Below, piece after piece: positions 2,244-43,530 of a stretch of 64,000 nt of DNA (positions are counted from its first letter, which is position 1; every line of letters begins with the position of its first letter). The position numbers were made by a program, and so were the translations under genes. The DNA comes from Octopus vulgaris (lineage: Eukaryota). The stretch lies in the NCBI GenBank assembly GCA_951406725.2, contig OX597814.1, forward strand, positions 190,774,001 through 190,838,000, given 5' to 3'. The notes under the pieces were generated by a model. It worked only from the letters and a program-made list of their open reading frames with translations. It made no database searches and was not told the origin of the DNA.

Positions 2244-2357
2244 AATAAATTCAGGGTGAATACTTGGTAAGTATAAGCACCGGTATATGCCTGCTAGTAG
2301 CAGAGGTGAGAGGGTATATGTATCAAATGAAATAAAAAACAGAACACAAAGGATGTC

Positions 2358-2449
2358 GCAGTACATGCGTTTCGAACTTTATAAAACAACTTATTCTTAC
2401 ATCAATGTATAATCGACATAACAGATAGTTTAAAGCCCTCTTCAGCCGC
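2358..2449 (-). ncRNA. Type I hammerhead motif, inverted copy
   Basis: Minus strand reads gcgg-CTGAAGA-gggcttta...taaagttc-GAAA-cgcatg-TA-ctgc. Confidence 0.65.
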
Positions 2450-2703
2450 ATGCAATTGCTACACCAAAGACTTGTATCACATTATGAAAAGTCCGAAAAA
2501 GAACATTTGGTATTATTTATAATGGTAGGTATATTGAGTTTCACTGCGAAAGTATGTTTGTAAATCTTCATAATCAAATAGGTGTACAGCGTATTATTGG
2601 ACTTCGAAAATCCGTCCATATTGTATCATCAGTCAAATAATACCAAATGTTCTTTTTCGGACTTTTCATAATGTGATGTAATTCTTTGGTATAGCAATTG
2701 CAT

Positions 2704-2793
2704 GCGGCTGAAGAGGGCTTTAAACCATCTGTTATGTCGATTATATATTGATGTAAGAATAAATTGTTTTATAAAGCTCGAAACGTGTACCGC
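2704..2793 (+). ncRNA. Type I hammerhead ribozyme motif (minimal helix III)
   Basis: gcgg-CTGAAGA-gggcttta...taaagctc-GAAA-cgtg-TA-ccgc: 4-bp stem I, 8-bp stem II, intact core, GUA cleavage triplet. Confidence 0.75.
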
Positions 2794-2827
2794 GACATCC
2801 TTTGTGTTCTGTTTTTTATTTCATTTG

Positions 2828-2872
<45 letters not shown>

Positions 2873-2947
2873 ATATATACACACATATATACATACACAT
2901 GTATATATGTGTGTGTGTGTGTGTGTATGTATATATATATATATATA

Positions 2948-3167
2948 TACAAGGAGGTACTGAAAAATTCCTGGCTTTAAGGGTACTGCAAAAGGCCTGT
3001 TTGGAGGCACAAACTTCCAAGTTCTCTTTAAAGGCTTAGAAAAACTGGAGGACCACTGCAATAAGTGTGTGAATCTGAGAGGAGAATATGTTGAATAAAA
3101 TCATAATTAACTGATCATTTTGTATTTTCTTTTACCCAAAGCCAGGAACTTTTCACCCCCACTCGTA
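2948..3167 (+). mobile_element. Internally deleted mariner element (MITE)
   Basis: Imperfect TIRs tacaaggaggtactgaaaaattcctggcttt / aaagccaggaacttttcacccccactcgta at TA sites; interior encodes EKLEDHCNKCVNLRGEYVE*, like a mariner transposase C-terminus. Confidence 0.75.
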
Positions 3168-3176
3168 TATGTGTAT

Positions 3177-3252
<76 letters not shown>

Positions 3253-3373
3253 ACCCCACTAGAATGGGAGAAGGCGCTAATGATCTAAGGGATATGATAT
3301 ATATATAAAAAATGTAATATATAAATAAATATCTGTAAATATAAACCATCCAATCTTCTGAGTACCTCATATC

Positions 3374-3420
<47 letters not shown>

Positions 3421-3714
3421 GAGTGTGTAGATAAACGAAAGAAGATCACTTGACACATTTATTGGGAGTTACATGTATGGATCAAAACAGTAACGCTAAT
3501 CTTTGGTCATTAGAGTTCTGAATATGCGCTTGTGTGTGTGTGTGTATGTGTGTAAAGCAAAAGTAATTCTAGTTCTCAGCAAGCTGAAGGCAATGAGATG
3601 TAATGTCGCTGTTCATCAAAAGTGTCTTTATAGACTCCATTAGTTTCTTTTGGCTACTAAGATTTCCTTCAGCCACATATCACCTCCATTGGAAGATAAT
3701 GGTTAAGCACTCCT

Positions 3715-3783
<69 letters not shown>

Positions 3784-5114
3784 CTGTGAGCTGGTAGCTT
3801 GGGTGGTGAGTTGGCAGTTAGGGTGGCAAGCTGGCAGCCTTGTTAGCACCCCGGGTGAAATGCTTACTGGCATTTCGTCTGCCATTATGTTCTAAGGTTG
3901 ACTTTGAATTTCATCTTTTCAAGGTCGATTAAATAAGTACCAGTTATGCACTGGGGTCGATGTAATAAGCTTAATCCCTTAATCTGTCCTTGTTTGTCCC
4001 CTTGTGAGCAATCTGGCAGAAACAGCGCGCCGGGCGAAATGCATAGCCGTATTTCTTCTGTTGTTACGTTCCGAGTTCAAATTCCGCCGAGGTTGACTTT
4101 GCCTTTCATCCTTTTGGGGTCGATAAATTAAGTACCAGTTACGCACTGGGGTCGATGTAATCGACTTAATCCCTTTGTCTGTCCTTGTTTGTCCCTTCTG
4201 TATTTAGCACCTTGTGGGTAGTAAAGAAATATATATATATACAACCTCTAGTTGTTAAAACAAGTATCATAATAATGAGCTCATTCTGTACAGTGGTCGG
4301 GTGCACTACAACTCAGAAAGTAGCAATAAGTCAAGTAAAGAAACACAGCAATAACAGCCAAAAGTACAAGAACAGTACACAGGATAAAAGACAAACAGAA
4401 CAGGAAAGTGAACAGCAAAATAATATCATCTTCATGCAGTATTTTAAATCTGAGTTTTGTCCTCATTGACAGGATTGGCTGGATCTGTGTCAATGCCGTA
4501 GCAACCAAGGTAGACAAGTGCAGCCCACCCCAATTTTTCAGCTGGCTAGTGCCCATTCTCCTTTGCTATCATGAGGTTTTTTGTGGGGAGCTGGATTTTC
4601 TACGGGGAGCATGCCCTTGCTTACCCCCAACCTCAGTTTCTAGACAGGAGTGGCCCCCAAGACCAAGGCTTCTACCACAATTTTTAAGAAATGTGGTGGA
4701 GAACTAGCTCAGGAAGGCAGGGATGCTACTCCCTGAGACCCCTTTTGAACCCCCTCCCCATAACACTCAAATTAAGTAAATCATTATGAACGTAAACCTA
4801 GCTGAACAAATAACCATTACTAAGTCTTGAAGTTCAATACTAATGTTTCTTTTTCACTTTTTTCTTATGATATAATAATAATTGTAATTAAAAACTGTAA
4901 ATAATAAACTTCTCCCCTCCAAAAAGAAAAACAAATAAAAAAGAAAGAGATCTCCATTACCTCTGGCATAAGAGTTAGTGCTTAGATTAAAACTGTTGAA
5001 TTAAGAGTCTTTATATGGTTGATTCCCAGGAACTTTTAAAAGTTTTATGGAATTTATTGGCATTTATTGGCATGTACTTGTTTCAAATTCATACAACAAG
5101 AGTGCAATTTTTAG

Positions 5115-5152
<38 letters not shown>

Positions 5153-6128
5153 ATGTGTGTGTGTATGTGTGTTGCTTATGCGCATGTGTACCATGTGTAT
5201 AATTAAAATACTGGAGATCTTGGAACATGATCCATAGTTGTCGTTGTATGAAATAAGCTTCTGATATTGGAGAGACACAGAAGTCCCTGAAATGCTAGAA
5301 GAACATAAGATACTAAGTACCCCACAAAAACGAATTCCAGTAGTAGCTTTGGAAAATATGAACTGAAGGCAAGGATTATGGCAGCATTCACCAACAATAG
5401 AAAATGTGAAACAGAAAAATATATAAAGGGGAACAACTTTGATGGACTTTGTGTCTATTTTAATAACATATTCTTTGTTTTTTGTATAAATATATTTAAT
5501 TACCGTATTTGATAGCACTTGAGATGCACTTTTCAACAAGGATATGTCTTGAAACACTGGGTCTATACTACATTTTTTAATGCAATAAAAACTTTTTTTC
5601 TTGAATATGTGCTGCTAAAATTGAGATTTGAGTAATATTCCAGGGCAACTTTTCTTACCATAAAAATACGGTAATATAAATAACAAATGCCATTAAAAAT
5701 ATAATTTTAAAAACACGTTTATTTGAATGACATTTTTTTCTGCATACATTATTTCAAATAACCCCGAAATAAAAGAAGGGTGAGTCTTACGTTTTAAACT
5801 TTCTTGTTATTGCTGTAGTAGTCACAGTGTGTGCAACTAAATTAACAGGGTTTTTCTCGCGTAAGAAATAAAATGAGCAGAAAAAAATCTGTAATTGTTA
5901 ATGTGCTTTAAGAGTTGTTTCCCTTGAACAAGTCATTCAAGCAATAGATACTGCAAAATGAAACATAAGAAAGACTAGAGTGGCAAAAATGTTAAAGCGT
6001 AAAAAAATCTTTGTCCGTAATATTTTGTTTAAGCCTCTCTGTGTTCTGAGTTATGCATGAATTTTTAACCCTAGCCTGAAGATTATATTTTCTAAGAAAG
6101 AATTGAGATTGTAATAATACATACATAT

Positions 6129-6495
6129 GCAGGAGTGGCTGTGTGGTAAGTAGCTTGCTTCCCAACCACTGCGTGGCAGTTTGGGCATGTGTCTTCTACT
6201 ATAGCCACGGGCCGACCAAAGCCTTGTCAGTGGATTTGGTAGATGGAAACTGAAAGAAGCCCGTCGTATATATATATATGTGTGTGTGTGTTTGTGTGTC
6301 TGTATTTGTCCCCCCGACATCGCTTGACAACCGATGCTGGTGTGTTTACGTCCCTGTAACTTAACGGTTCGGCAAAAGAGAGCGATAGAATAAGTACTAG
6401 GCTTACAAAGAAAAAGTCCTGGGGTCGATTTGCTCGACTAAAGGCGGTGCTCCAGCATGGCCGCAGTCAAATGACTGAAACAAGTAAAAGAGAGA
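6129..6495 (+). mobile_element. tRNA-headed SINE family A
   Basis: Head gcaggagtggctgtgtggtaag (A-box-like; B box deleted in this copy), internal microsatellite, tail aaatgactgaaacaagtaaaagag. Other copies near 8064, 9619, 22019, 24880(-), 27535(-), 46654, 47582(-), 51698(-), 60149, 62666(-). Confidence 0.85.
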
Positions 6496-6797
6496 ATACA
6501 TACACACACATACATACACACACGTACATACATACATACATACATACACACATACATACATATGTATCCTAGGTATACAACTATATTCATAAGAATGCAT
6601 ACATAAAATAAGACATACAAATCTGCACATATACATACATACAAAAGTACCCTGTTGATGTCGAAATTCCAATGAAGGAGCCTTGGATCTAGCTTAGAAA
6701 CTGGCTCTTTCTCTGGTGGTAAGAAATCTTGCAATTAAACTGAACAATGACTACATACATACATACATACATAAAGTGTAGGTGGAATACAAGTGGG

Positions 6798-7203
6798 TAT
6801 ATATTATTTATAAAAAAGAAGCTTGAAAACATCACTATATAAGATAAATTTTAATTTTCTGTGAGATTTTACACTTTTTGGTTCTTCTTGAAAAAACGAA
6901 CCTTATCAAAAATATATATTTTTAAAAGTTAAGTCTAATAAAAAAGTTCATAATTGTTTCTCACTAGTCTCAACAGAATCCCCATGGTAGTGTTTTGTGT
7001 GTGGGAACATAATGGCTGTCTTGTGTGTTGACTAGAATCGTTGGCTATGAACTTTTTTATTACACTTAACTTTGAAAAATATATATTTTTGATAAGGTTC
7101 GTTTTTGCAAGAAGAACCGAAACATGTAAAATCTCTGAGAAAATTAGAATTTATCTTATATAGTGCCGTTTTCAAACTTCTGTTTTTTTATAAATAATAT
7201 ATA
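6798..7203. repeat. Foldback element with ~155-bp inverted arms and a hammerhead variant
   Basis: tatattatttataaaaaagaag...aaaagttcata is mirrored by tatgaactttt...ttttataaataatata. Confidence 0.85.
7085..7132 (+). ncRNA. Minimal hammerhead motif, U3-A8 core variant
   Basis: attt-TTGATAA-ggttc...gaacc-GAAA-catg-TA-aaat; helix III region ACATGT is self-complementary. Confidence 0.6.
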
Positions 7204-8063
7204 TATATATACACACACATATATACATACGTAAATACATACATATGGTTGTTAAATAATGATTGTGTGTGTGTGTGTGTGTGTGCATGTGTATTACCAT
7301 CATCATCATCATCATTATTTAATTTAATGCCCTTACTCCATGTAGGTTGGACAGTTCAACAGGGGCTGGTGAGCCAGGCTCCAGTGTCTGCTTTGGCATA
7401 GCTTTTATGGACGGATTCCCTTTCTAATGCCAACCATTTTACAAATTGCACTTTTTACATGGCACCTATACTAGAAAGGACACCAAGTAACTTGCACCAA
7501 AAGAACCCTCAAATGAAGAGGTGGCTTTGTGTCAAATGAGGAGAGGCTAAGATAGGATTTTTTAACAGGAAAATTTCCAAGCAAAGCAATACACAATACC
7601 TCCATTATTTTGAAATCTAATACATCTATTATAAAACGTTCTTGTTCTTTATTCTTATAACCAATATAAGTGTACGTCTATAAAGTAATGCTTATTATTA
7701 TTGTTTAATTTCTAAGTATTCTTTATACAGTTAAAAAAACTCTTAACCATTATGTCATAATGTTTCACTTTCTGACAGTTTAAAATGTAGTTGTTTCAAG
7801 TTATCAAAGATGTAAATGTAATCCCAAATACAAACATGTTATTTTAGTTTAATGCTGCTTCAGTTGCATAAACAAGGTTTTGCTCAGCCTGGCAGCTATT
7901 CGCAAAATTAGTGGAAGTGTTTATCAACTGTTTCCTGTATTTTGCCTGGTCTGTATCATACATATATCACTTTCATGTCATGCGATCTGTCCTAATTATC
8001 AACCATTTGGTTTGCAGCAATATTGTGCCATATCATCAATTTAATTGAATATTCTATGACCTA

Positions 8064-8240
8064 GGTGCAGTAGTGGCTGTGAGGTAAGTAGCTTGCTTAC
8101 CAACCATATGGTTCTGGGTTCAGTCCCACTGCGTGGCACCATGGGCAAGTGTCTTCTACAATAGTCCCAGGCCGACCAAAGCCTTGTGAGTGGATTTGGT
8201 AGACAAAAACTGAAAGAAGCCTGTCGTATATATGTATGTG

Positions 8241-8291
<51 letters not shown>

Positions 8292-8499
8292 ATGTTTGTG
8301 TGTCTGTGTTTGTACCCCCAACATCGCTTGACAACAGATGGTGGTGTGTTTACATCCCTGTAACTTAGTGGTTTGGCAAAAGATACTGATAGAATAAGTA
8401 CTAGGCTTCCAATGAATAAGTCCTGGAGTTGATTTGCTCGACTAAAGGTGGTGCTCCAGAACAGCCACAGTCAAATGACTGGAACAAGTAAAGAGAGAG
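8064..8499 (+). mobile_element. SINE family A, full length
   Basis: A box tggctgtgagg, B box ggttcagtccc, CORE-like tgggcaagtgtctt, family tail. Confidence 0.85.
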
Positions 8500-8674
8500 T
8501 ATTCCCAAGCTTTTCTCAGTTTTAAGTTGAAAGCCCACCAAGAACAATTGCAGAGGTTGAGAGAATCACTGGATGACACAAATCCTCACTTCTCACCAAA
8601 AGTAGACCAGTGTGCATTCTATCATAGCAGAATTACCATCAAGTTTTCTGTTGCTGAAATTTAGTCGGGAATGA

Positions 8675-9440
8675 TAAAAATAATGAAATTATTGTGTGTA
8701 GTGCTCAGGCGCACTACAACTCATCAAAAGTGCATGTACAGTACATAGAATTATGTACAGAAGTCAGGAAAGTGAACAGTGTATGAGTCAACTCATCAAA
8801 AGTGCATGTACAGTACATAGAATTATGTACAGAAGTCAGGAAAGTGAACAGTGTATGAGTCATGATATACATGTATAGAGTCGGGGTTATCAGGTATAGT
8901 GTTGGTGAATTTCAGGAAGCATGAAGGTTTTAAAGAATGCAATGTCTCGGCAGCTAATAACTTATTTCTTTATTGCCCACAAACAAGGACAGACAAAGGG
9001 ATTAAGTCGATTACATTGACCCCAGCGTGCAACTGGTACTTAATTTATCGACCCTGAAAGGATGAAAGGTAAAGTCGACCTCAGCGGAATTTGAACTCAG
9101 AACGTAACAGCAGACAAAATACCAATAAGCATTTCGCCCGGCGTGCTAACATTTCTGCCAGCATTCCATGCTCCAGCAACTCTGAGTATGAAAAAAAAAT
9201 GTTTCCGAAAGTCATGGGAGCTGACCTGTTTTCTGATTTTGTAGGCATGCCCATGTGTGTTAGACACATGAAGCTCAAAAATGTGCTCAAGGTGATTGTT
9301 GGTGCGATGGTTAATGATTTTATGGGTGTTTACTAAGTCAGTTGCCAAACGTCAGAGCTTCAATGTGTCTATACCCAGCGAAGCAAGGCATTCAGAGTAT
9401 GGTAGATGCCTGATGGAAGGTATTTGCTTGGTTGCACATC
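8675..9440 (-). mobile_element. CR1 LINE 3' fragment interrupted by a family B SINE (~8962-9161)
   Basis: Minus strand encodes DLVNTHKIINH...SNTHGHAYKIRKQ...FRKHFF; contains a 72-bp tandem duplication at 8717-8860. Confidence 0.85.
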
Positions 9441-10407
9441 AGGACTTCTTGCATAATGATGAACCAACCTTTTTTGGCTTCTTGGTCCTTACCAATCATT
9501 TTTTATGACTATTGTTTACACTAAAGCTCAATTCTAATCTCTTGTGTCACAACCAGTATTCATTAGAAATTTATATAAACATGTTCAATAAATCTTAGAA
9601 TAAAAAAAATACTCTTATAGGTGCAGAAGTGGCTGTGTGGTAAGAAGCTTGCTTCCCAAACCACATGGTTCTGGGTTCAGTCCCACTGCATGGCATCTTG
9701 AGCAAGTGTCTTCTCTGTAGCCTTGGGCCAACAAAAGCCTTGTGAGTGGATTTGGTAGACAGAAACAGAAAGAAGCCCATCATATACATACATACATACA
9801 TATATATATATATATCTTCTTTTTCTTCTTCTTCCCTACCAAGAATTCACAATGACCTCAAATCCACAAGAGTAAACAAGAGAGACAGAAACAGGCAGAA
9901 ACAAAGAAAATTCCACTTGTATTTGAACACTATGCAAATATTCTTTTAAAAAACTTTTCTTTTAATTTTTCCAAAATTTAATTTTCAATACTTACAGTTG
10001 AAAATGTCTCAATGACTGAAACCGGTAATGAAATGTTTTTTACAAAATTATTTTAGCATTTTCTACCTTGACTTTTTTCCCATATGTGTGTGTATGTGTG
10101 TGTGTGTATTTGTGTGTCTGTGTTTGTCACCCCACCATCACTTGACAACCGATGTTGGTGTGTTTACATATATGATGTATAAAAACATGTAGCATACTAA
10201 TAAATATCTGTAAATATAAAACCATCCAGATTTCTGAGTACCTCATTTCTTCTAATATATAATACCTGTACGTCATCTCCAAACTTTCTAATATATATAT
10301 ATATATGAATTTAAAATAATAAGGGTGAAAAATTGAATATTAATTTGATTAAACCAGTGGTCTAGCATATTAAAATCTGAAGATACAGAAAAATTATATT
10401 ACATACA

Positions 10408-10601
10408 TATAAGAGGGATGACCACTACGTGGACAGACATATGCTAGAAGTAGATGTGGTATGGTCTTACCACTAAGAAAGGAATGTTCTCAAGAAAATT
10501 TTAACGTTTGCTGAAATTTTCTTGAGAACATTCCTTTCTTAGTGGCAAGACCATAGCAGATCTACTTCTAGCATATGGATGTCCACGTAGTGGTCATCCT
10601 T

Positions 10602-10607
<6 letters not shown>
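10408..10607. repeat. Near-perfect ~200-bp hairpin next to (TA)n
   Basis: ataagagggatgaccactacgtggaca... mirrors ...tgtccacgtagtggtcatccttcttat with a short loop. Confidence 0.9.
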
Positions 10608-10645
<38 letters not shown>

Positions 10646-10728
10646 GGTCCCGGGTTGATTCGGGGTTAACCACAGTAAGTAAGGTACTCAATACATAGCA
10701 GAGTAAAATTAATTTATTATATAGAAGG

Positions 10729-10779
10729 AGCTTCTACAGGACTAGTACTGTTTCATTCAAGAGAAATCTTCAGGAAGCT
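10729..10779 (-). ncRNA. Type I hammerhead motif, left arm
   Basis: Reverse complement of 13720-13770. Confidence 0.65.
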
Positions 10780-11117
10780 ATTTAACAAGAATTGTATTAG
10801 CATTTATACATTTAGGCAGGTTTAAAGGAGTGGTGGTGGGGGACTTTTTGGGGGTAGGCATAGCGCAAAATATCATACTCGGGGGAGTGGTCAAGGAGTC
10901 AGTGGTAAGTTAGATGAAAGAATAGATAAATAAAATAGATAAATAAAAAAATAAAAAAATAAAAAATAAAAAAAAAAAATAAAAAAAATAAAAAAAATAA
11001 AAAATATAAAAAAATATAAAAAAATATATATATAAAATATATATATATAAAAAAAAATATAAAAATATATATATAAAAAGGGGGGATAGAGTTATAGGTA
11101 AATAAGGAGATTCTCAC

Positions 11118-11177
11118 TTATACCTATACACACATGTATACGTATCTACACACACATACATACATACACATATATAT

Positions 11178-11234
<57 letters not shown>

Positions 11235-11691
11235 CCTACACATACACACATACATACATACAAATATACATATACATATATATATATATATATACAATCC
11301 AATACAGGCCCATTCCCTAATTTTAATTTTATTATCTTCATTTATTACTTTTGTTATCTTTGATCGCTAGGGCTAAGAATCCTGGCAATGGCTGCCTGTC
11401 CATTTGTCTGTCTACTAGAAGGCAAGTACTCATTCCCGCACGCACACTCATTAGCACGTACATTCACCCATTCGTACACTCATACACATACACGTACGCA
11501 CGCGTTATATTCATACATACAAACATCTACATACGTTCACGTATATACACATACGTACTCGTACCTACAGATTCGTGTCTACACTTTAGGAGGCTAGTCT
11601 ATACATATACACCAATAAATATACATATATATATATATACCCGCATATACATACACACACACACATATATACTCCTACATACAGATACATA

Positions 11692-11743
<52 letters not shown>

Positions 11744-11925
11744 CATACACATACACACATACATATACACACACATACATACACATATATATATACATAC
11801 ACAAACATATATACACACATATATATATACATACACACATACACACATACATACGTATACATACATACATACATCCATACATCCATACTTACATGCATTT
11901 ATACGCATACACACACCCATCTATA

Positions 11926-11959
<34 letters not shown>

Positions 11960-12239
11960 CACTCACACATACATATACAAATCTACGCACACACATACAT
12001 ACATACACGTATACGCATACACGCACATACACATATACATGCGTACCCATACACGTGCACACACGCACGCGCATCCATATATATACACACACACACATAT
12101 ATATACACGTGTGCAAACATACATACATACTCATACGCGCACACATACTTACAAATACATATATGCACCCACTTACACACATATATATACATACACATAT
12201 ACATGCATACATACATATATGCATACATACACACACGCA

Positions 12240-12291
<52 letters not shown>

Positions 12292-13341
12292 TATATACAT
12301 ATATAGACATATATACACATACATACACATACACATACATACACACATATACACATATATATATATATATACACATATACACATACATATATACACATAT
12401 ACATACATATACATACACACACACATACATATATACATATACACTGATACACATACCCATACATACACATGCATATACATATATCACTACATACTCACAT
12501 ATATAAACATACTAGCAGTATCGCCCGGCGTTGCTCAGGTTTGTAAGGGAAATAACTATAAAGCATTTTTAGAGAGTTATAGCCAAAAAATAGCAAAAAA
12601 ATGGAAAAAAAATGATGGTAAATTTTTTTGAGAGTTAAAGGTAGAGTTGCGTCCCCTAGACGGTCTGTGGTTTGGGTTTCTAATTCTCGACCCCATGTCG
12701 AATTTATCGATTTTTTTCAGAACTGGGGGAACTTTTCAAAATTTTCTCTGCGTTAGTTTTGAATTATGACATTGGGCTATGTGTGTGTCAAGTTTCATCA
12801 GAATCGGTTGAAAGCCGTGGTCAGAGTGAGGGTACGAGAAAACAGACACACAGAAACACGCACAGACAAACTGCCGTTTATATAGAGAGAGATATACATA
12901 TACACACATACATATATACATGTACATACACATACGTATGCATATATACATATATATATATACATATATATACACACATATATATATATATACATATATA
13001 CACACACACACACACATACATGTACACATATACATGTATACATACACAAAAATGATACACATATATACACATACACACACACAGACAGATGCATATACAT
13101 ACATATATATATATAAACTACATATCTATATAAATACATACATAATACACATATACACACACATATATATACATTCATGCATATACGTATACAAGTATAC
13201 ATACACATACATACACACACACGCGCACACATACATATACACACACACATATACAAATACATACATACACACATACACACACACACATATATACATATAT
13301 ATATATACATACATGTACACATATACATATGTATATATATA
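11118..13341. repeat. Very long degenerate (TA/CA/TACA)n microsatellite tract
   Basis: Seen directly; source of the spurious 426-aa HTYI-rich ORF. Confidence 0.95.
12512..12892 (-). mobile_element. Non-autonomous Helitron
   Basis: Minus strand starts TCTCTCTCTATATAAACGGCAG and ends cctgagcaacgccgggcgatactgCTAG; inserted between A and T with no TSD. Confidence 0.85.
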
Positions 13342-13719
13342 TCAACAAGGGAGGGTAAAGTTAATTAGTTATTAATCAATTTCATCAAGTGTTCAGTATG
13401 TAAAGGGACCATTATTATTTTGAGTAAACAATGTTAGAGGAAAAAAATTCTCTAAGTAGTGGAAGAGGCTAAAAAACTTTATTGGCTGCTATTTTTTTTT
13501 TTTATTTTTTTATTTTTTTATTTTATTTTTTTATTTTTTATTTTTTTATTTTTTTATTTATCTATTTTATTTATCTATTCTTTCATCTAACTTACCACTG
13601 ACTCCTTGACCACTCCCCCGAGTATGATATTTTGCGCTATGCCTACCCCCAAAAGTCCCCCACCACCACTCCTTTAAACCTGCCTAAATGTATAAATGCT
13701 AATACAATTCTTGTTAAAT

Positions 13720-13770
13720 AGCTTCCTGAAGATTTCTCTTGAATGAAACAGTACTAGTCCTGTAGAAGCT
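13720..13770 (+). ncRNA. Type I hammerhead ribozyme motif, right arm
   Basis: agcttc-CTGAAGA-t-ttc-tctt-gaa-t-GAAA-cag-tactagtc-ctg-TA-gaagct: 6-bp stem I, complete stem III, GUA triplet (cut after 13764); stem II closed by a U-U mismatch. Confidence 0.65.
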
Positions 13771-13781
13771 CCTTCTATATA

Positions 13782-13824
<43 letters not shown>

Positions 13825-13849
13825 GGACCCCAGGTTGGGAACCACTGAT

Positions 13850-13907
<58 letters not shown>

Positions 13908-13990
13908 CCGGTTCGAAGATGTATGTATGTATGTATGTGGACGTGTACGAACATGTGACACTAACGAGTTAAAACAGTACAAGTTAACTA

Positions 13991-14074
13991 TTTCGCGTTA
14001 ACACCGCATTTCGGCAAACTCTTGTTGCTAGGACAACTAAAGAATCTCAGCCAATGAAATCATTTGTTTTTGAA
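13991..14074 (+). promoter_or_regulatory. Putative CEP95 promoter: E2F-like TTTCGCG (13991), RFX X-box GTTGCTAGGACAAC (14024-14037), CCAAT (14051), CHR TTTGAA (14069)
   Basis: Four motifs within 85 bp of unique, CpG-containing sequence, just upstream of a consensus splice donor. Confidence 0.6.
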
Positions 14075-14089
14075 TCGACCACTATTTTA

Positions 14090-14880: not shown

Positions 14881-15514
14881 GAAGAGTGGTCCCGGTGCGT
14901 GCACTCGCGCTAGCTAGTCGATCCATACTTTGTTTTTGTGTTGTATTTTGTTTAAAAAAATTATTTACTTTGTTTTAAAAAAGTTACTTACTTTGTGTAA
15001 AAAAAAATTGGTAAAATTACAGATTAACACCCGCACGATTTTCCCTAAGAAAAAAAAAAACTCGGATTTTTTGCGTGGAATCAAGTACCCTGACCTCCTA
15101 ATATGCTGGAAATCCCATATTTCGGTTCGGAATTGGTCGGGAGCCCCCCCCCCCCCCGGAATTTTCACACAAAAAAGAACTCTGATTTTTTGCGTGGAAT
15201 CAAGTACTGTGACCTCGTAATATGCTGTAAATCCCATATTTGGGTTCGGAAGGGTGGGGGGGCAGCCCCCTCCCCCACCCTTCCGAACCGAAATATGGGA
15301 TTTACAGCATATTACGAGGTCACAGTACTTGATTCCACGCAAAAAATCAGAGTTCTTTTTTTTTAGTGAAAATCGTGCGGGTGTTAATCTGTAATTTTAC
15401 CAAAAAAGGTATTTATTTTGTGTTTTATTTACTTTGCTAGGTAGTCGTTGTAGGAGTGACTACTCACGACTAGCTAGCGCGAGTACGTGAGTGTGCGCAC
15501 CGGGACCACTCTTC
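14881..15514. mobile_element. Foldback MITE with TTAA flanks (Kolobok-like)
   Basis: TTAA|GAAGAGTGGTCCCGGTGCG...CGCACCGGGACCACTCTTC|TTAA; nested palindrome centred near 15265. Confidence 0.75.
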
Positions 15515-16050: not shown

Positions 16051-16683
16051 GGATCTTTTCCTTTTGAACGGCAGACAATTTCTAGTTAACTAAACACTTT
16101 TAAACTTCGTATACTGGTAGAATGTGTCAAAATAAAACATTTTTTTCTCTTGGCTTTCTTGAGAAAATTGTAATTTGTTTGTTTAACGTAGTTTAATTTT
16201 TCGAATTCTAACCAATCCTATGCTCTCTTTTGAGCTAAAATCATTTGCTGCGTCTAAAACTGAGACAACATCCTGTAACTAACCCTAAACCTCCCCCTAA
16301 CCCTAACCCTAAATTTATTTTTTTAATTGTTAAATTAATTTAATTGTTACGCGTGTAAAAAAAAACTAACGCAATGGAAAATAATTTAAACAATTAACAA
16401 ACAAAAAAAAATTAGGGTTAGCAGGAGGTTTAGGGTTAGTTACAGGATGTTATCTCAGTTTTAGACACAGCAAATGATTTTAGTTAAATGGAGGTAATCG
16501 ATTGGTTAAAATTGCCGAAATGCTCAGATTTTCAGACGAAATATCTTACAAACTATAGAATTTTCTCGATAAAACCAACAGAAAATGATGTTTTATAAAC
16601 ACATTCTACCAGTATACGAAGTTTAAAAGTGTTTAGTTACCTAGAAATTATGTTACAAACTGCCGTTCAAAAGGAAAAGATCC
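16051..16683. mobile_element. Foldback DNA transposon (Merlin- or MULE-like) with telomere-like core, copy 1
   Basis: TIR GGATCTTTTCCTTTTGAACGGCAG; exact 9-bp TSD GACGTGAGG (16042-16050, 16684-16692); CCCTAA and TTAGGG units inside. Confidence 0.85.
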
Positions 16684-17501: not shown

Positions 17502-17576
17502 TGTATATATCCTCAGGTTAACCAATGCTTTGTGAAAGTGATAGGTGGAAACTATATAGAAGCTTATCTCTCTCTA

Positions 17577-23230: not shown

Positions 23231-23988
23231 GGATCTTTTCCTTTTGAATGGCAATTTTCAACAAAATTTCTAGTTAACTAAACACTTTTAAATTTTGTAT
23301 ACTGGTAGAATGTGTCAAAATAAAACATTTTTTTCTCTTGGCTTTCTTGAGAAAATTGTAATTTGTAAGTTTAACGTAGTTTAATTTTTCGAATTTTAAC
23401 CAATCAATCGCCTCTAATTGAGCTAAAATCATTTGCTGCATCTAAAACTGAGACAACATCCTGTCGCTGTTATGTTTACGTACGGAATGTTTACATACGG
23501 AAAGTGTGTGTATAAAATTATAGAATTATTTTGTTTGTTAATTGTTTAAATTATTTTCCATTGCTTTCATTTTAGCCTTTTGTTTTGTTTTTTTATCTTA
23601 AGCAATGGAAAATAGTTTAAACAATACACATGTATCTCAAAACAAAAACAAAACGAATAATTTTAGACACACGCGTAACAATTAAATTAATTTAACAATT
23701 AAGAAAAAAAAACCGAAAGGCTAAAATTTAGGGTTAGGGTTAGAGTTAGTGTGACAGGATGTTGTCTCAGTTTTAGACGCAGCAAATGATTTTAGCTCAA
23801 TTAGAGGCGATTGATTGGTTAAAATTCGAAAAATTAAACTACGTTAAACTTACAAATTACAATTTTCTCAAGAAAGCCAAGAGAAAAAAAATGTTTTATT
23901 TTGACACATTCTACCAGTATACGAAGTTTAAAAGTGTTTAGTTAACTAGAAATTGTGTTGAAAACTGCCGTTCAAAAGGAAAAGATCC
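23231..23988. mobile_element. Foldback DNA transposon with telomere-like core, copy 2
   Basis: Same TIRs as 16051; flanks gatttggg / gatttggt; tttagggttagggttagagttag at ~23727-23750. Confidence 0.85.
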
Positions 23989-32568: not shown

Positions 32569-32641
32569 ATTTCATTCGGGATAAGGCATTTTTGGAAGAT
32601 TGGATTCACCAAAAACACATAGAAGATAATAAAGAGAAGCT
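32569..32641 (+). CDS. CEP95: CEP95 coding exon 4 (DFIRDKAFLEDWIHQKHIEDNKEKL)
   Basis: tttacag / gtgagt, phase 1-2, open frame. Confidence 0.75.
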
Positions 32642-34302: not shown

Positions 34303-34400
34303 TTCTTCTCCAGGAGCAACATCTGGCTGTACTCGCTTTGCTTGGCAGGACAGCACCACAGTAGCAGAAAAGGAAGATGATCGGAAGATATTTGAGCCAG
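34303..34400 (+). CDS. CEP95: CEP95 coding exon 5 (SSPGATSGCTRFAWQDSTTVAEKEDDRKIFEP)
   Basis: tatctag / gtttgc, phase 2-1, open and compatible with both neighbours. Confidence 0.7.
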
Positions 34401-37070: not shown

Positions 37071-37382
37071 ATATACTCAATCGTACGATGACACTTGGAT
37101 CATACCATGTCCCAGATGTTACTGAGCCAGTTCCATCGATACCAGCTCAAACTCCAGACATTCTTGATCAACCTACATATCCACCAAAGAAAGTTAAAAA
37201 AAGTGTTAAAATTCAAAGTAAAGAGAAACAAGATTTTGTGCCTTTATTTTTACCAACATCTAAGCCTCCAGAATATATCACCAAAGTTCATTCCTCTTGC
37301 CAAACCATACCATTTTATGATGAACCATTGAAAGATAGGAATTATCAGGAAGATAATGGTCCTCGGAAGATTATTGGTTCAG
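37071..37382 (+). CDS. CEP95: CEP95 coding exon 6 (DILNRTMTLGSYHVPD...GPRKIIGS)
   Basis: 312-nt open frame in unique sequence, aag / gtaaaa, phase 1-1. Confidence 0.8.
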
Positions 37383-39731
37383 GTAAAATTCTTTGAAATG
37401 TTATCAACAAGTTTATAATAGTGATTAAATTGGTTACTAGGACTCGAAATATTATTAATTATTGGCTCCTGTGCTGGTGGCACATAAAGAGCATCATTTG
37501 AGCTTGGTCGATGCCAGTGCCTCCTGATTGGCCCCTGTGCCGGTAGCATGTAAAAAGCATCCACTACACTCTCGGAGTGGTTGGCATTAGGAAGGGCATC
37601 CAGCTGTAGAAACCTCACCATATCAGATTGGAGCCTAGTGCAGCCTCCTGGCTTGCCAGTCCTCAGTCAAACCGTCCAACCCATGCCAGCATAGAAAGCG
37701 GACGTTAAACGATGATGATGTGTGTCTCGGCATGATTGTAAGGTCATTACTGCAATACCCAGTGATATATTGTAGCCTTGAGCAAGACTCTTTATTTCAC
37801 ATTGCATTCGACTGGCAAAAATGAGTTGAACCTATAATTCAAAGGGCCACTCTTGTCACATTCTGTATCACTCTGAATCTCCCTGAGAACTACATTAAAG
37901 GGTACACATGTCTGTGGAGTACTCAGCCACTTGCAGGTTAATTTCACGAGTAGGCTGTTCCATTGATCAGATCAACTGAAACAGTTGTCATATACACACA
38001 TATATATATAGAGTGACTGACAGACTGTATTTCAAAGGGCCAACCTTGTCATGCTGAATCTCCTTGAGAACTACATTAAAGGGCACACATGTCTGTGGAG
38101 TACTCAGCCACTTGTAGGTTAATTTCAGGCTGTTCTGTTGATTGGATCAACTGGAATATTCATTGTCATAGCTGACAGAGTACTAGTTATTGTTGTTGTT
38201 GTTGTGAAGGGGCATGGCTTAGTGGTTAGAGCATTTGACTCATGATTGTGAGGTCACGAGTTCAATTCCCAGCAGCACATTGTGACCTTGAGCAAGACAC
38301 TTTATCTCCTGTTTCTCCAATGAGTATTTCCTTATGTCTTCACATTTTCAGTGTGTGTGTGCAAAAAGCCATGTCAGTGTTTATGTCTTTTGTAAAGAGA
38401 ATGACCCACTGTTCAGTCGTTTCATCATATGTGAAGTCTTATTTCTTTATTACCCACAAGAGGCTAAACATCTATATACACACACACACACACCAAGCTA
38501 TTTTTGTTATCGCAACATAGCACAGTTGTGGTATAGCATACTTCAACCAATCAGAGCTGGGCACATATTAATATCAGAAGCAGTTATCTGCCCCATAGGT
38601 AAGCTCACGTTTTTTTAATAATCAGCAGAAGAATACAAGACAAACCACATTTTCCAAAGATGGGATCTGCCTTTTGTCTTTCTCCCCAACTTACCACTGC
38701 AAACTTCTGAATCATATTCAGCTCTCAATGCTGACTACATCATGGATATCCTATTTCGTTTTTGTCAACTTCACCTTGCGAGCACCTTTTCAGTTAGTCT
38801 CTATCAACACAATGCTACCTATATCATGAATGGTTTATTTCCGTCTAAGCTAGCTTTTAATGATTTCCACTTAAATCATTTGTTCAATCAGAAGTTTTAT
38901 TGCTTTTCTCTGACTCCTACACATATGCCTTTAGGTATTAAGAGCACCATCCGAGCATGATTGTTGCCAGAGCGGCTATCTGGCCTCCGTGCCGGTGACA
39001 CCATTCGAGCGTGATCGTTACCAGCATCGCCTTACTGGCACCTGTGCCGGTGACATGTATAAAAGATTCGAGCGAGGTCGTTGCCAGTACCGCCTGACTG
39101 GCACGTAAAAGCACCCACTACACTCTCGGAGTGGTTGGCATTAGGAAGGGCATTCAGCTGTAGAAACTCTGCCAGATCAAGATTGAAGCCTGGTGCAGCC
39201 ATCTGGTTCGCCAGCCCTCAGTCATTCGTCCAACCCATGCTAGCGTGGAAAGCGAATGTTAAACGGTGATGATGATGTTTTGTTCAAAAACTTCCTTTGA
39301 TATTCATTTACACATGCTTCTCAAAAGCACATTTAATGGAATTTTCCATTAACACTTTCATACATTAAATCAGAGGCCCACAGACAAGCTGTTTTCAAGG
39401 CCCTGCTTATCTATCGCATTCTGGATCCTCTGCCTCAGTGAAGTTCATTACGGCTAGATTCTTCTAGCCAACTCGAGGCATTGCATCATTGACTAGCCTC
39501 GATCTTGCTTCTATTTCCCAAGGTTGATGGTGCATACACACATTCATGCTCCCTTCGGCACCTTCAGCACACCAGATGCACATTCCGTCACATTCACATT
39601 GATCTTGTGGGACCCTGGCCTGTCAGTCAAGGATACGCTTACATTTCACATTGGTGACTTTTATGTTGCTTACATTCTACACTGGCTTCCATACTAAGCT
39701 AATGACTTACTACTGTGTATTACTTTTTCAG

Positions 39732-39768
39732 ACACAAAACCATCTTTATTTCCAACAAATATTAGAAG
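39732..39768 (+). CDS. CEP95: CEP95 coding exon 7, 37 nt (DTKPSLFPTNIRR)
   Basis: tttttcag / gttagt, phase 1-2; needed to join exons 6 and 8 in frame. Confidence 0.7.
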
Positions 39769-40242
39769 GTTAGTATTGTATTTTTCACAATCTTCTCATT
39801 TTATTTACAAAATGTTTCATAATGCAGCTATGTAAAGTGTCCTAATTCTGCTCCAATGCAGGGTAGTTGGGATAGACCAAGGAGGATTTGGAATAAAGTC
39901 GTTGGATGAAACCAGAGAACCATGAGTTTATCAGATAAAATGATATAGGTTGAACCCTTCTTTGGCATTCAGATTACTGTCTCAAATGCAATGCCTATTT
40001 ATTCACATTGTTTGAAAGAATCTTGTATTATCTCATAGCTTTGAGATTTCAGTGATGTGATTATGTATTTTTAGAACGTAGTAGGGTGAGAGCCCAAATC
40101 TAGCCAGTTTGGACATAAAACAGGTAAAATATTTTGACCTGATATGGCTGGTTTACCACTGTGCCAAAAGAGACATAGAAATACCAAGATGATAATGTTG
40201 AAGTAAGTGTCGATATTGTTTAAATGGTATTTTTCCAAATTC

Positions 40243-40476
40243 TAAGGCAGTGAGCTGGCAGAATCGTTAGCACTCCGGGTGAAATGCTGAGCGGTATTTC
40301 GTCTGCCATTATGTTCTGAGTTCAAATTCCGCCGAGGTCAACTTTGCCTTTCATCCTTTCGGGGTCGATTAAATAAGTACCAGTTACGCACTGGGGTCGA
40401 TGTAATCGACTTAATCCGTGTGTCTGTCCTTGTTTGTTCCCTCTATGTTTAGCCCCTTGTGGGTAGTAAAGAAATA
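40243..40476 (+). mobile_element. SINE family B, full length, 17-bp TSD
   Basis: TSD ggtatttttccaaattc at 40226-40242 and 40477-40493. Confidence 0.9.
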
Positions 40477-40657
40477 GGTATTTTTCCAAATTCCTTATAA
40501 AATCTGAAAATTAGTCAAGATTCTCAGATAGATTTTTTTTTCTGTTTTCTTTTTTGTTCTTTAAAACGTTTTTGTTAATTGCCTGGTTTATTTACTTGTT
40601 TTCAGTCAGTCATTTTCAGCAGACATTAACCCTGATTTGATGCTTATGTTCTTGTAG

Positions 40658-40750
40658 AAATTCTGACTCATCAACTCAAACGGAGAAAGCCTTCTATCCT
40701 GAATCGAATGATATCTTAGAGCAATACAGACCTGGACGCAGTACAAATCA
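40658..40750 (+). CDS. CEP95: CEP95 coding exon 8 (NSDSSTQTEKAFYPESNDILEQYRPGRSTNQ)
   Basis: ttgtag / gtaagt, phase 2-2. Confidence 0.75.
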
Positions 40751-40806
40751 GTAAGTGAATAAAATTTTACAGAAAGTATAGAGTATTAGTAAAATAATGT
40801 TATCAT

Positions 40807-41160
40807 CTGTTGTGTCTGGGGAGAGTCATTTTCTTTTTGTGCCTTATTATGTAACACACTCACTGGTAAAATTTCCACTTTTTTCTTATTTTTATTTTCC
40901 TAAAATTTTTGTTGCGTCTTGCAACCTTTTCAATAGTTTTGAGTCAAAATTTTTGTTGTGTCTTGCAACCTTTTCAATAGTTTTGAGTCAAAATTTTCGT
41001 TGCGTCTTGCAACCTTTTCAGTAGTCTTGACTATTGAAAAGGTTGCAACACGCAACGAAAATTTTAGGACAATAAAAATAAGAAAAAAGTGGAAATTTTA
41101 CTGGTGAGTGTGTTACATAATAAGGTGCAAAAAGAAAATGACTCTCCCCAGACATAACAG
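40807..41160. repeat. Foldback element with a triplicated ~42-bp hammerhead-like unit
   Basis: ctgttgtgtctggggagagtc... mirrors ...gactctccccagacataacag; unit aaaattttcgttgcgtcttgcaaccttttcaatag occurs three times in the left arm. Confidence 0.85.
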
Positions 41161-41261
41161 AATATGCTTCAATACACGAACTCATATAAAGAATCTTGCA
41201 AACCAAATCCAAAAACGAAATGTTATCATCATCATCATCATTTAACACTTGTTTTCCAAAT

Positions 41262-41640
41262 CCCGTGATGTCACCTTCACTTCTGACGACACCAAAGCCC
41301 ATGATTGTCACTGGAAATCTCATCTGCATGACTCTAGACATGTCATTAGATGAGACAGGGAACCATCTGTTGTTCTGGGAGTTGATCTGGTCTTGACAGA
41401 AATTCTTCTCGTTGGAGAAGAACCACAGCATGTGTAGTTCCAGTGGGTGTTTCAACTTATTTGATCAGCTTCTTGGTGTGTTTAAGTCACATATCCTGCA
41501 TTGCCTTGGACAGAAACTTTCCATACTCATCTTGTATGCAAAGTAGGAAATATCCTTCTGTGCCACCAGCCTGATGAGCTTTCCATCCACACCTTTGCAT
41601 TGAATTGCTGGGATCATTGTTGATGATCTGGATTTCAGCG
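41262..41640 (-). pseudogene. Tc1/mariner (maT/DD37D-like) transposase remnant
   Basis: WFFSNEKNFCQDQINSQNNRW...MRFPVTIMGFGVVRSEGD resembles the first catalytic-D region (FSDEK); frameshifted upstream. Confidence 0.75.
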
Positions 41641-41839
41641 ACGAATTCCAACATTCTGATGGTATCAGATCGACAGGGGCTTCAAAATTTTCCATTGTCA
41701 ATTATTCTGCAAAAAAATAAAACACAAGTGGTTATTAAAAAGAAAAAGACCAACAAGAAAAGTAAATAGAATATGCATAAAGTTAGCAGTTGATAATTGC
41801 AAACAAATACTGACCACACCCTATGTGTGTGTGTATATA

Positions 41840-42095
41840 TCTATTATATAAAATCTGTTCTGTCTGTCTGTGTGTGTGTCTTCTAGGATCTCGGGCATCC
41901 TCCATCCAGTTGTGCTCAAATTTGATATGTAGATACCAACGGTATCAGGGCGAGTATAAGTCTTGAAAAAATTACAAAAATCGATTCCAGGTGATAATGT
42001 GATCGATAAAGCCGTAGGAACATGCATTTGTAAAATTGTTTTTCTTGGAATAGAAAAAAGTCTATCTTTATTTCTTCTTTTGCTGGTGTCTTAAA
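41840..42095 (+). mobile_element. Helitron-like 5' fragment
   Basis: A|TCTATTATATAAAATCTGTTCTGTCTGTCTGTGTG start, like the other Helitron 5' ends here; no 3' CTAG terminus found. Confidence 0.5.
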
Positions 42096-42144
42096 TTTAG
42101 GTTAAATCAGTGTTTCTCAAAGGGGAGGCCTATGGGATGGTCTA

Positions 42145-42205
<61 letters not shown>

Positions 42206-42300
42206 TATACACACATATATATATATGAGAGTATTGTATACATATATATGAGAATATTATAGTTCGCTTTAAGCATTGTGTATTGTTTGTAAACAATAAT

Positions 42301-42611
42301 AATAAATAGTAATAATGTGTTTTGAATGACACAACAGTGCACTATAATAACAACAATGGACTATAATAACTGGTGTCATTTAATCATTTATAGTCTGATA
42401 TAATATTTCGAAATATAAAAATTCTTTCTTCAGATATCCCTAGGGATTGATTGGGAAAATCAGTTGTAGCAGTGACTTGATCAATTCCTAGGGATATCTG
42501 ATGAAAGAATTTTTATATTCCGAAATATTATATCAGACTATGGATGATTAAATTACATCAGTTATCATAGTGCACTGTTGTGCCATTCTAAACACTTTAT
42601 TACTGTTTATT
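42301..42611. repeat. Foldback element with hammerhead-core motifs in both arms
   Basis: Mirrored arms; gatat-CTGATGA...GAAA-tatt-atatc at 42493-42534 and an inverted CTGAAGA copy at ~42397-42439. Confidence 0.8.
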
Positions 42612-43530
42612 TTACATTTATATAATTTTGACAAAACAAGTACAGCTCAATGCTAAATATTTTGGTATTTGGATACGTCTGGATCATGATTTCTAGTTCT
42701 GGCAAAAAGCCTCAACCTTCATCAGTAAGTTTTACCCACTGAGAAAACTGAAAAATTTTTTCCAGTTGGTAAAAGGAATTCCAACCACATTTCATGGTTT
42801 GCTACCCCAACAGCTCTTATAGGATTCAGTGGGTAAAGACATCATCAGGAGGAACTACGTCCAGTTTCAGCCACTACTCCTCTACCATTTTCAACATGCT
42901 GCCCCCCGCCTTTCTGAGGTGACATCAGCTCTGGTGTTGAGTGCATTTTTTTCTTTCTCCCTTTTTTCTTTTGTTCTTTGGTTTCTTCAATGCTGTGTCA
43001 ATGAATGTCAGCAGGCAAAATACCATCCTGCTAAATTTCCCTTTAAATACTCACTGGTAGGCTCCAGCAGCCAGCACCAGCTAACTGTCATGTGACACTG
43101 TCTTAGTTTCAACTGACCAATGGAGGGGAAGGGCACATAGTTTTGACCTATGCCCTCCCTAAACCTGCCTTTCAACAGTGTTGTGTTAGTTTCATTTCCA
43201 GCAGCCAGAGCCGACCAGCTGTTTGCTAGTACAAGCCTTTGAACCAGGAGCAGGGCATGCTATGAAATAAGATTGCTATCTTGGCATATCTGTCAATAAT
43301 GGTTTATTGATGTAGAAGGTAGCAAATATTTCTCTTATCAAAGTATGATAAGCTGGGCTCCCTTGACAACAATGTAACCTTCATTTGCCTATGTTATCTT
43401 TGGCCTGATGAGTAACTAGCAGAATACTCCTCATTGAGTAATTACTGCTTACGTGGCTCTGCTAGCTAGGAAACATATGTAAGCTGGATTTTACCTACTC
43501 CATCCACTAAATTTGGATATATATATATAT

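Follow-up and report, generated by a model that had tools for sequence, protein, structure and literature searches.

The five foldback and three solo repeats found in the window, that is, in the whole analysed stretch of 64,000 nucleotides of the Octopus vulgaris contig OX597814.1, are very probably 5'-truncated 3' ends of Penelope-like elements (PLEs) of several families, each with a hammerhead motif, and the foldbacks are likely to be products of single insertions. The first-pass annotation had described five foldbacks with outward-facing motifs in both arms and three solo motifs, and all of them are present by self-BLAST and a motif scan. The inverted repeats seen by self-BLAST are 2315-2836 (85%), 6798-7203 (80%), 10712-11016/13490-13787 (97%), 40806-41161 (81%) and 42301-42611 (76%), and the solo core motifs are located at 9998 (plus strand), 42725 (minus strand) and 43405 (plus strand). 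The elements are indeed mutually unrelated, as the eight arms produce no pairwise BLAST matches at E≤0.05. The features, with families denoted E1–E5 (foldbacks) and F6–F8 (solo copies), are as follows.

2248-2830: E1 foldback, arms ~2321-2830, one-sided tail ~2248-2320, (TA)n on the flanks
2358-2450, minus strand: E1 left hammerhead motif, C3-G8, long helix II, strict match
2703-2793, plus strand: E1 right hammerhead motif, strict match
6774-7203: E2 foldback, tail ~6774-6797, assigned to the 3' end of a Neptune-type PLE
6866-6913, minus strand: E2 left hammerhead motif, broken, GAAA lost
7085-7132, plus strand: E2 right hammerhead motif, U3-A8, palindromic helix III, strict match
9885-10082, plus strand: F6 solo copy, assigned to the 3' end of a Neptune-type PLE, motif 9995-10030, U3-A8
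10645-13787: E3 foldback, tail ~10645-10711, assigned to the 3' end of a young Hydra-type PLE
10729-10779, minus strand: E3 left hammerhead motif, 4-bp helix III, U10.1-U11.1 mismatch, relaxed match
13720-13770, plus strand: E3 right hammerhead motif, same sequence as the left one
40796-41230: E4 foldback, tail ~41162-41220, 12-nt target-site duplication 40796-40807 / 41219-41230
40900-40936, minus strand: E4 left minimal hammerhead motif, broken, GAAA lost
41031-41067, plus strand: E4 right minimal hammerhead motif, U3-A8, extra base after position 9, G10.1-C11.1
42250-42611: E5 foldback, tail ~42250-42300, 3' end of a PLE with reverse transcriptase (RT) and GIY-YIG
42397-42438, minus strand: E5 left minimal hammerhead motif, relaxed match
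42493-42534, plus strand: E5 right minimal hammerhead motif
42612-42750, minus strand: F7 solo copy, fragment of a ~485-bp non-coding tandem unit, motif 42677-42730
43350-43520, plus strand: F8 solo copy, assigned to the 3' end of a Hydra-like PLE, motif 43402-43484

The arms of the E3 foldback are unequal, the left one being long, with a microsatellite-rich 3' UTR, and the right one short. This family is young: the top 40 matches are 99–100% identical. Every one of the eight repeats is a member of a high-copy family; the candidate counts at first look were 1537 for E1 and 4200 for E4.

Five of the eight families (E2, E3, E5, F6, F8) continue upstream, on the same strand, into PLE coding sequence. 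The Penelope origin expected from the window sequence is found for these five. By motifs and similarity, without a tree, E2 and F6 are assigned to the Neptune type, E3 and F8 to the Hydra type, and E5 to neither. For E2, F6 and E5, RT followed by GIY-YIG is seen upstream on the same strand, while the endonuclease end linked to E3 and F8 was identified from its motifs and its resemblance to a different fragment of the genome, not through Pfam. The E2 arm lies downstream of GIY-YIG, on the same strand, in 20 of the 30 GIY-YIG loci. Full-length copies with direct pseudo-LTRs (pLTRs) were obtained for the E2 type only (loci L289 and L291); the motif is present in both pLTRs, at ~2280 and ~7066 in L289, where they flank a 781-aa frame, and an E2-like tail leads into the first ATG. 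L289 represents a younger subfamily, ~70% identical to the E2 copy of the window. L136 and L148 encode E2-linked proteins with the Neptune marks (the CX2-5CxxC linker before GIY-YIG, and CCHH), and the F6-linked ORF ends are 51–57% identical to these proteins. In two of 20 loci, L167 and L171, the F6 repeat is preceded on the same strand by an ORF end, at a distance of 0.72–0.74 kb; this link is weaker, because the loci are few and nested insertions, as in L126 and L281, can mimic links.

The 3' UTR of E3, 3.3 kb long and microsatellite-rich, joins a Hydra-type ORF end in three of seven long copies (L123, L124, L125), and a fourth long copy reaches the same UTR–ORF junction. The E3-linked frame (L123, +3936-4610) features the CxCX5C linker, no CCHH, and CxxC and CxH around the conserved E and N. 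An 899-aa Neptune frame in L126, considered as a part of E3, lies in a nested insertion from a different family, the copies of which are spaced 4271 bp apart. For E5, a continuous alignment of 1226 bp between L245 and L251 spans both the ORF end and the motif, and the link is seen in eight of 20 loci picked for long upstream sequence. A sample of 20 loci picked in the same way yields four links for F8 (L262, L269, L271, L278), with endonuclease remnants 0.8–0.9 kb upstream on the same strand; the remnants are broken, and the Hydra marks are only partly visible.

For the three unlinked families, E1, E4 and F7, an origin from PLE 3' ends is likely. No ORF was found in at least 1.7 kb of microsatellite-rich sequence examined upstream of E1 or in at least 0.5 kb upstream of E4, nor was any met in the upstream walks for F7; the walks for all three ended at microsatellites or truncations. 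The Neptune ORF neighbouring E1 in L281, which comes with a hammerhead-like motif of its own, was rejected as a partner, as were ORF fragments near L221, L406, L432 and L435, met in the walks for these families in the wrong place or orientation. Two long E1 copies end at a similar point, and a repeat of the tail at the same locus was absent from all 57 E1 loci. F7 is different: its tandem periods are 486, 485 and 464 in L393, L400 and L399, the longest stop-free frame of the unit is 46–51 aa, and same-strand pairs occur in five of 39 loci; the dimers seen are partial. Judging by these periods and frames, F7 looks like a short non-coding tandem unit resembling a non-LTR retrozyme, and E1 (2321) and E4 (40807) are possible non-coding families.

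The strict type I descriptor has three matches in the window against a mean of 0.13 (maximum 1) in 30 local dinucleotide shuffles, and the relaxed one has 11 against a mean of 2.0 (maximum 5), so the motif frequency exceeds that in shuffled sequence with both. Seven of the 11 relaxed matches are sites named in the first-pass annotation and four are other sites. The strict descriptor is passed by just three of the 13 named motifs, because most window copies bear a lesion: the left arms at 6798 and 40807 have lost GAAA, and each of the three solo copies has a mispaired helix I. The family majority sequences are intact, with helix I restored for each of these solos. All eight majorities form a type I hammerhead core with paired helices I–III; the position 3-8 pair covaries, being C3-G8 in five and U3-A8 in three, and helix III is palindromic in seven, reaching 8 nt in E1. 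Hence the type I architecture, the U3-A8 variant and the palindromic helix III, proposed from single copies, are borne out. The pair 10.1-11.1 is mismatched in the majorities of E3, F7 and F8, and helix I is just 3 bp long in those of E4, F6 and F8. At helix I positions 1–3 all 24 family-majority pairs are Watson–Crick, with 3–4 pair types per position, and among 40,320 permutations the true matching alone attains 24/24. Within families the core decays about like the flank (95.4 and 96.4% identity, respectively, for E2, 97.1 and 97.8% for F6, 96.7 and 95.8% for E4; the E3 and F8 flanks in this comparison extend beyond the element end), hence selection is visible between families only. Judged by their sequence, the motifs are predicted to cut RNA. 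The cofold energy of the dimer is lower than that of two monomers for six motifs of six; calculated without a shuffled control, this carries no weight.

In a random 800 kb of the genome, 19 strict motifs are found, compared to ~2.4 in shuffles (range 1–6); extrapolation from this sample suggests about 30,000–95,000 strict motifs genome-wide. The association with (TA)n noticed in the window holds, with differences between families. With the background at 0.07–0.11, it is strong for E1 (9 of 11 arms), E2 (33/37), E3 (26/26) and F6 (19/22), weaker for E5 (12/31), F7 (8/21) and F8 (6/21), and absent for E4 (4/32).

The distance between the cores of a foldback differs within families, being 165–1315 for E2, 584–5645 for E3 and 65–607 for E5, and the motifs of a pair point outward in 48 loci and inward in one. 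Among 20 E4 copies selected by the 3' end and tail, 11 are foldbacks, each with a different junction. The tail is absent from the second arm in ten of these 11, and it is one-sided in three of three E1 pairs and seven of eight E2 pairs; tails occur also in E3, E5 and F6. Their length is ~25–75 nt, compared to 30–40 bp in print. Direct repeats of 9–14 nt flank seven of the 11 E4 foldbacks (two of these being microsatellite), as opposed to six of 110 mismatched pairs. The foldbacks look like one-off insertion products. The E3 arm is covered in four sequencing contig sets, where the ends and the strand are not readable, so this observation has no weight.

We infer two-strand priming, with catalysis and dimer use in the parent RNA. 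The PLE protein would nick AT-rich DNA on both strands, ~9–14 nt apart, and reverse transcription would be primed at each nick from two closely spaced internal starts immediately 3' of the hammerhead, with the intervening stretch forming the one-sided tail. Both cDNAs would stop early and then join, producing two head-to-head copies with the motifs outward. The hammerhead would likely be selected only in the parent RNA, which would cut as a dimer via the palindromic helix III; in the foldback transcript, the antisense arm is predicted to silence it, 6–7 of the seven core bases being paired with the far arm in the predicted folds of four elements of four. Snap-back of a single cDNA on itself would give a similar footprint.

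Publications on other animals already describe hammerhead pairs on opposite strands, the U3-A8 variant and inverted PLE insertions with a tail. The available text of Cervera and De la Pena 2014 (PMC4209133) describes minimal hammerheads in PLE pseudo-LTRs, which fall into many families within one genome and are mostly solitary, and dual min-HHRs ~100–700 bp apart on opposite strands in Schistosoma; it makes no mention of cephalopods. Our motifs share this pattern, and also type I, the short palindromic helix III, the extra base after position 9, G10.1-C11.1 and U3-A8. However, helix II in several of our families contains inserts of 50–65 nt, and the estimated number of motifs is tens of thousands as compared to 2,000–9,000. 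Craig et al. 2021 (PMC8557442), in the part available, report inverted truncated PLE copies with a one-sided tail and (TA)n bias, characterise the Hydra clade by the CxCX5C linker without CCHH, ascribe canonical hammerheads to PLEs with a C-terminal endonuclease, and list the formation of inverted copies as unresolved. The inverted 5'-truncated copy, the one-sided tail, the (TA)n bias, the Hydra linker and the presence of hammerheads in PLEs with a C-terminal endonuclease are shared here, whereas both copies are usually too short to keep an ORF, the tails reach ~75 nt, and the Hydra family E3 is very young, with its 3.3-kb microsatellite-rich UTR. For Poseidon PAc from Anolis, the available part of PMC11167929 shows that both strands of an AT-rich target are cleaved and extended, and that the tail is the stretch between two RT starts downstream of the hammerhead, leading into the coding region; the PAc hammerhead depended on protein, and insertion in vitro did not require it. 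The tail anatomy and the AT-rich target are similar to ours, but that text models no inverted pairs. As far as the available text of PMC7229834 and bioRxiv 10.64898/2026.07.22.740005 goes, F7 is like non-LTR retrozymes in that its tandem unit is short, AT-rich and non-coding and carries a single type I hammerhead, although it is ~485 bp long, compared to 150–450 bp, and was seen only as partial dimers; the seven other families, unlike retrozymes, are not tandem units.

Chance matches within AT-rich repeats might account for the few strict matches among the named motifs, for the loose U3-A8 core in three families and for the absence of hammerheads from the 150 listed Rfam matches (out of 201 at E≤10), but not for the excess over shuffles in both the window and random DNA, nor for the mending of helix I by family majorities, and the placement of the motifs relative to the ORF and the tail is that of known PLE hammerheads; this explanation is hardly credible. 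MITEs are short, non-coding elements with inverted ends and high copy number. The foldbacks share all these features, they are common (more than half of the E4 sample) and MITE-sized, and hence one could take the foldback for the replicating unit, either a palindromic MITE-like DNA transposon or an RNA element needing a ribozyme for each strand. However, uniform length, symmetric terminal repeats and a fixed target duplication are not seen: the ends are asymmetric, the target duplications vary from 9 to 14 nt, there is no fixed junction, the arms are continuous with retroelement ORFs, and the predicted fold buries the core in a hairpin. Since the size and the junction vary copy by copy, the foldbacks are not replicating MITE-like units, and this possibility, largely refuted, is very improbable.

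Several families may instead be non-autonomous retrozyme-like mini-PLEs, having their own RNA and using PLE enzymes in trans, which we consider possible and rather unlikely. The tandem unit of F7 without a long frame, its same-strand pairs, the ORF-free sequence upstream of E1 and E4 in the copies examined, and the similar end point of two long E1 copies are in line with this. On the other hand, E3 seemed alike until its long UTR led to an ORF, five of the eight families are joined to coding PLEs, and E1 lacks the same-locus tail repeat. Thus the initial idea of many separate non-coding ribozyme elements proves mostly wrong: the majority of families are PLE-linked, the foldbacks are variable, and F7 alone is shown to be non-coding. 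Truncation of PLE 3' ends upon insertion remains the preferred reading; only tentatively would we propose that, besides truncated coding PLEs, the genome hosts non-autonomous mini-elements (F7, perhaps E1 and E4) riding PLE enzymes and inserting as inverted pairs in up to half of the cases.

In the literature searched there is no report of hammerheads in octopus PLE ends, although Lunse et al. 2016 may cover octopus. The words "hammerhead" and "ribozyme" do not occur in the main text of the octopus repeat annotation (PMC13282606), whose repeat library may name the families, and 235 hammerhead_1 matches are given in the giant squid paper. The gain is modest: a genome of cephalopod type in which the number of PLE hammerhead motifs is estimated at tens of thousands, spread over many families and no fewer than two PLE clades, one of the families being the very young E3 of the Hydra type. 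It also carries a caution, as short palindromic repeats here are retroelement ends and not DNA transposons. The diverse natural motifs could show which minimal hammerheads cut, and single-event foldbacks with readable target duplications could be used to test how PLEs form inverted copies. If the mini-element reading is true, the tens of thousands of junctions, one-sided tails and duplicated target sites would document in vivo, on a genome scale, how a dimeric PLE protein primes on both strands, and hence the unexplained step that makes inverted PLEs.

The hammerhead feature of these repeats is real. The five inverted repeats reported in the first-pass annotation were all recovered at their positions by self-BLAST of the window, and BLAST at E≤0.05 detected no similarity among the eight arms, as had been claimed for arms of different elements. 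The elements, with first-look candidates in the genome (assembly G000, 2.8 Gb in 227 contigs, the window being on C1), are as follows.

Foldbacks and solo motifs, window coordinates, with first-look genome candidates (not copy numbers)
2321, foldback E1, 1537
6798, foldback E2, 1277
10712–13787, foldback E3, 937
40807, foldback E4, 4200
42301, foldback E5, 1545
9995, solo motif F6, 2514
42679, solo motif F7, 60
43402, solo motif F8, 1149

The strict type I descriptor yields three matches in the window, compared with a mean of 0.13 and a maximum of one in 30 local dinucleotide shuffles, and the relaxed descriptor yields 11, compared with a mean of 2.0 and a maximum of five, so the motifs exceed the shuffled control proposed for them. 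Seven of the 11 relaxed matches are sites listed initially. One match absent from that list, at 63099 (−), has a U3-A8 core and a palindromic helix III; no homologue of it was found in the random genome sample. The Rfam search gave no hammerhead among the matches listed (best 150 of 201). The majority of the motif copies in the window are damaged, and hence homologues were gathered for each family.

The majority sequences from alignments of 11–38 arms per family are type I hammerheads in all eight cases. The core pair is C3-G8 in five families and U3-A8, the variant noted initially, in three; helix III, described as usually palindromic, is a perfect palindrome in seven of the eight majorities, the exception being E3 with a 4-bp stem. 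All 24 of the helix I pairs at positions 1–3 are Watson–Crick, each position showing three or four types of pair; when the 3' strands are permuted among families (40,320 arrangements), only the true pairing reaches this value. This agrees with the expected covariation, but since the helices were set by hand from majority lines and the sites had been chosen partly by their stems, the permutation is not a blind test. Less circular evidence is provided by the solos, as helix I is broken in the window copy of all three and intact in each family majority. The 10.1-11.1 positions are mismatched in the majorities of E3, F7 and F8, and helix I has only three pairs in those of E4, F6 and F8.

Eighty random 10-kb stretches (800 kb) contain 19 strict motifs spread over 15 stretches, compared with 1–6 (mean 2.4) in eight shuffles and one in the reversed sequence. 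Scaled to 2.8 Gb, this gives about 58,000 motifs, roughly 30,000–95,000 by Poisson error and wider with clustering. Most come from families outside the eight. The window families account for 10 arms in eight stretches, with two foldbacks; hence the window is unusually rich in them, and solos are commoner than foldbacks. Additional families were seen at L295, L302, L309, L324, L335, L337, L346, L355 and L368, one being present in four stretches and several having 50–70-nt helix II inserts and a palindromic helix III.

The predicted proximity of longer copies to Penelope-like (PLE) reading frames was observed for five families. Searching the genome for GIY-YIG returned 148 matches, and in 20 of 30 loci examined an E2-type arm (69–91% identity) lies 0.3–1.1 kb downstream on the same strand. 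In the full-length locus L289, a 781-aa RT and GIY-YIG frame is flanked by two direct repeats, each with the E2-type motif, the 5' repeat passing via tail-like sequence into an ATG; the E2-linked proteins have the Neptune-type CX2-5CxxC linker. An additional frame of 359–479 aa lies upstream of the RT frame in L289:2406–6087 and L291:768–4468, overlapping it in L291. F6 is found 0.72–0.74 kb behind the ends of Neptune-like ORFs in two of 20 loci. E5 runs on into RT and GIY-YIG remnants in eight of 20 loci, chosen for long upstream sequence, and two ORF-linked loci align continuously over 1226 bp. F8 has Hydra-like endonuclease remnants 0.8–0.9 kb upstream in four of 20 loci. No ORF link was found for E1 in at least 1.7 kb of UTR-like upstream sequence, or for E4 in at least 0.5 kb. 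One E4 solo (L317, about 3980–4310, −) directly follows a short frame, death-domain-like by eye, which may be chance adjacency.

In three of seven long E3 copies, a 3.3-kb microsatellite-rich UTR is joined to an ORF end with CxCX5C, CxxC and CxH and without CCHH, that is, the Hydra signature; a fourth extends to the same junction. This Hydra-type family (window 10645–13787; L123–L125) is very young, its best 40 matches being 99–100% identical; its 3' UTR is largely microsatellite, and some copies form foldbacks of 6–7 kb. An abundant repeat (14 matches in the random 800 kb), possibly Helitron-like, is inserted into the UTR at 12560–12830. A Neptune ORF within L126 was initially assigned to E3 and then withdrawn as a nested element. 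It represents a young family (L126:4552–6860, −, and G000:C1:27841554–27850416; 1175 first-look candidates, the best 40 at 99–100%), whose copies 4271 bp apart suggest head-to-tail tandems; one is nested inside an E3 foldback.

In samples whose queries favoured foldbacks, the core-to-core distance varies inside every family, and the paired motifs point outward in 48 loci, with a single inward-facing exception. For E4, the query comprised the 3' end with its tail and took no account of the 5' side; of its best 20 matches, 11 proved to be foldbacks. Every junction among these is different, and the second arm lacks the tail in 10. Direct repeats of 9–14 nt flank seven of the 11 (two microsatellite), compared with six of 110 mismatched flank pairs; in the window, a 12-nt duplication encloses the entire E4 foldback including the tail. 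The tail is one-sided in three of three E1 pairs and seven of eight E2 pairs. Given the variable junctions, one-sided tails and flanking duplications, each foldback is probably a single insertion, formed afresh every time. At the centre of the window E4 (40902–41030), the hammerhead-core region is repeated in tandem with a 44-bp unit (2.9 copies), and further E4 copies have core fragments repeated or re-inverted at the junction.

One possible source of such an insertion is a single cDNA snapping back on itself. As inverted truncated PLE copies with one-sided tails have been described (PMC8557442), and purified PLE protein cleaves and extends both strands, two start sites delimiting the tail (PMC11167929), we infer that two-strand priming followed by early termination would produce the foldbacks. 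E4 shows no adjacency to TA microsatellites, which had been claimed for most elements; E1, E2, E3 and F6 show it strongly, and E5, F7 and F8 less so.

A sixth foldback (10300–10621) has a one-sided extension and TA flanks and is possibly another PLE end; no hammerhead was found in its arms or in two longer copies viewed. Three inverted-repeat elements, at 15008–15403, 16051–16683 and 23231–23988, have no hammerheads paired across their arms, the latter two sharing termini and presumably forming an ordinary terminal-inverted-repeat family. The foldbacks at 44908–45441, 52872–52971 and 59650–59784 derive from ends of abundant SINE/LINE-like repeats and lack hammerheads.

The elements had been proposed to be non-coding. 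This applies to F7, whereas E2, E3, E5, F6 and F8 are linked to PLE ORFs. The F7 end leads straight into its own start with a period of 464–486 bp, and the longest frame is at most 51 codons; hence F7 is a short non-coding tandem unit. In this it resembles non-LTR retrozymes, which are argued to be PLE-derived (PMC7229834; bioRxiv 10.64898/2026.07.22.740005). PMC4209133 describes many families of minimal hammerheads per genome, U3-A8, palindromic helix III, an extra base after position 9, and opposite-strand pairs 100–700 bp apart; the octopus families share U3-A8, palindromic helix III and opposite-strand pairs. We found no literature report of these motifs in octopus; a 2026 repeat annotation names active Penelope-like families, its main text not mentioning ribozymes (PMC13282606).

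Every foldback strand carries one sense motif and its own antisense copy, and in predicted folds of four short foldbacks, all four had 6–7 of the seven core bases paired with the far arm; therefore the foldback transcript should not be an active ribozyme. Minimal PLE hammerheads are reported to cut weakly, as dimers (PMC4209133), and that of Anolis to require protein and to be dispensable for insertion in vitro (PMC11167929). Core and flank decay at similar rates within a family, as expected for dead copies. Conservation of the motif is visible between families, pointing to selection on it in the parent RNA.
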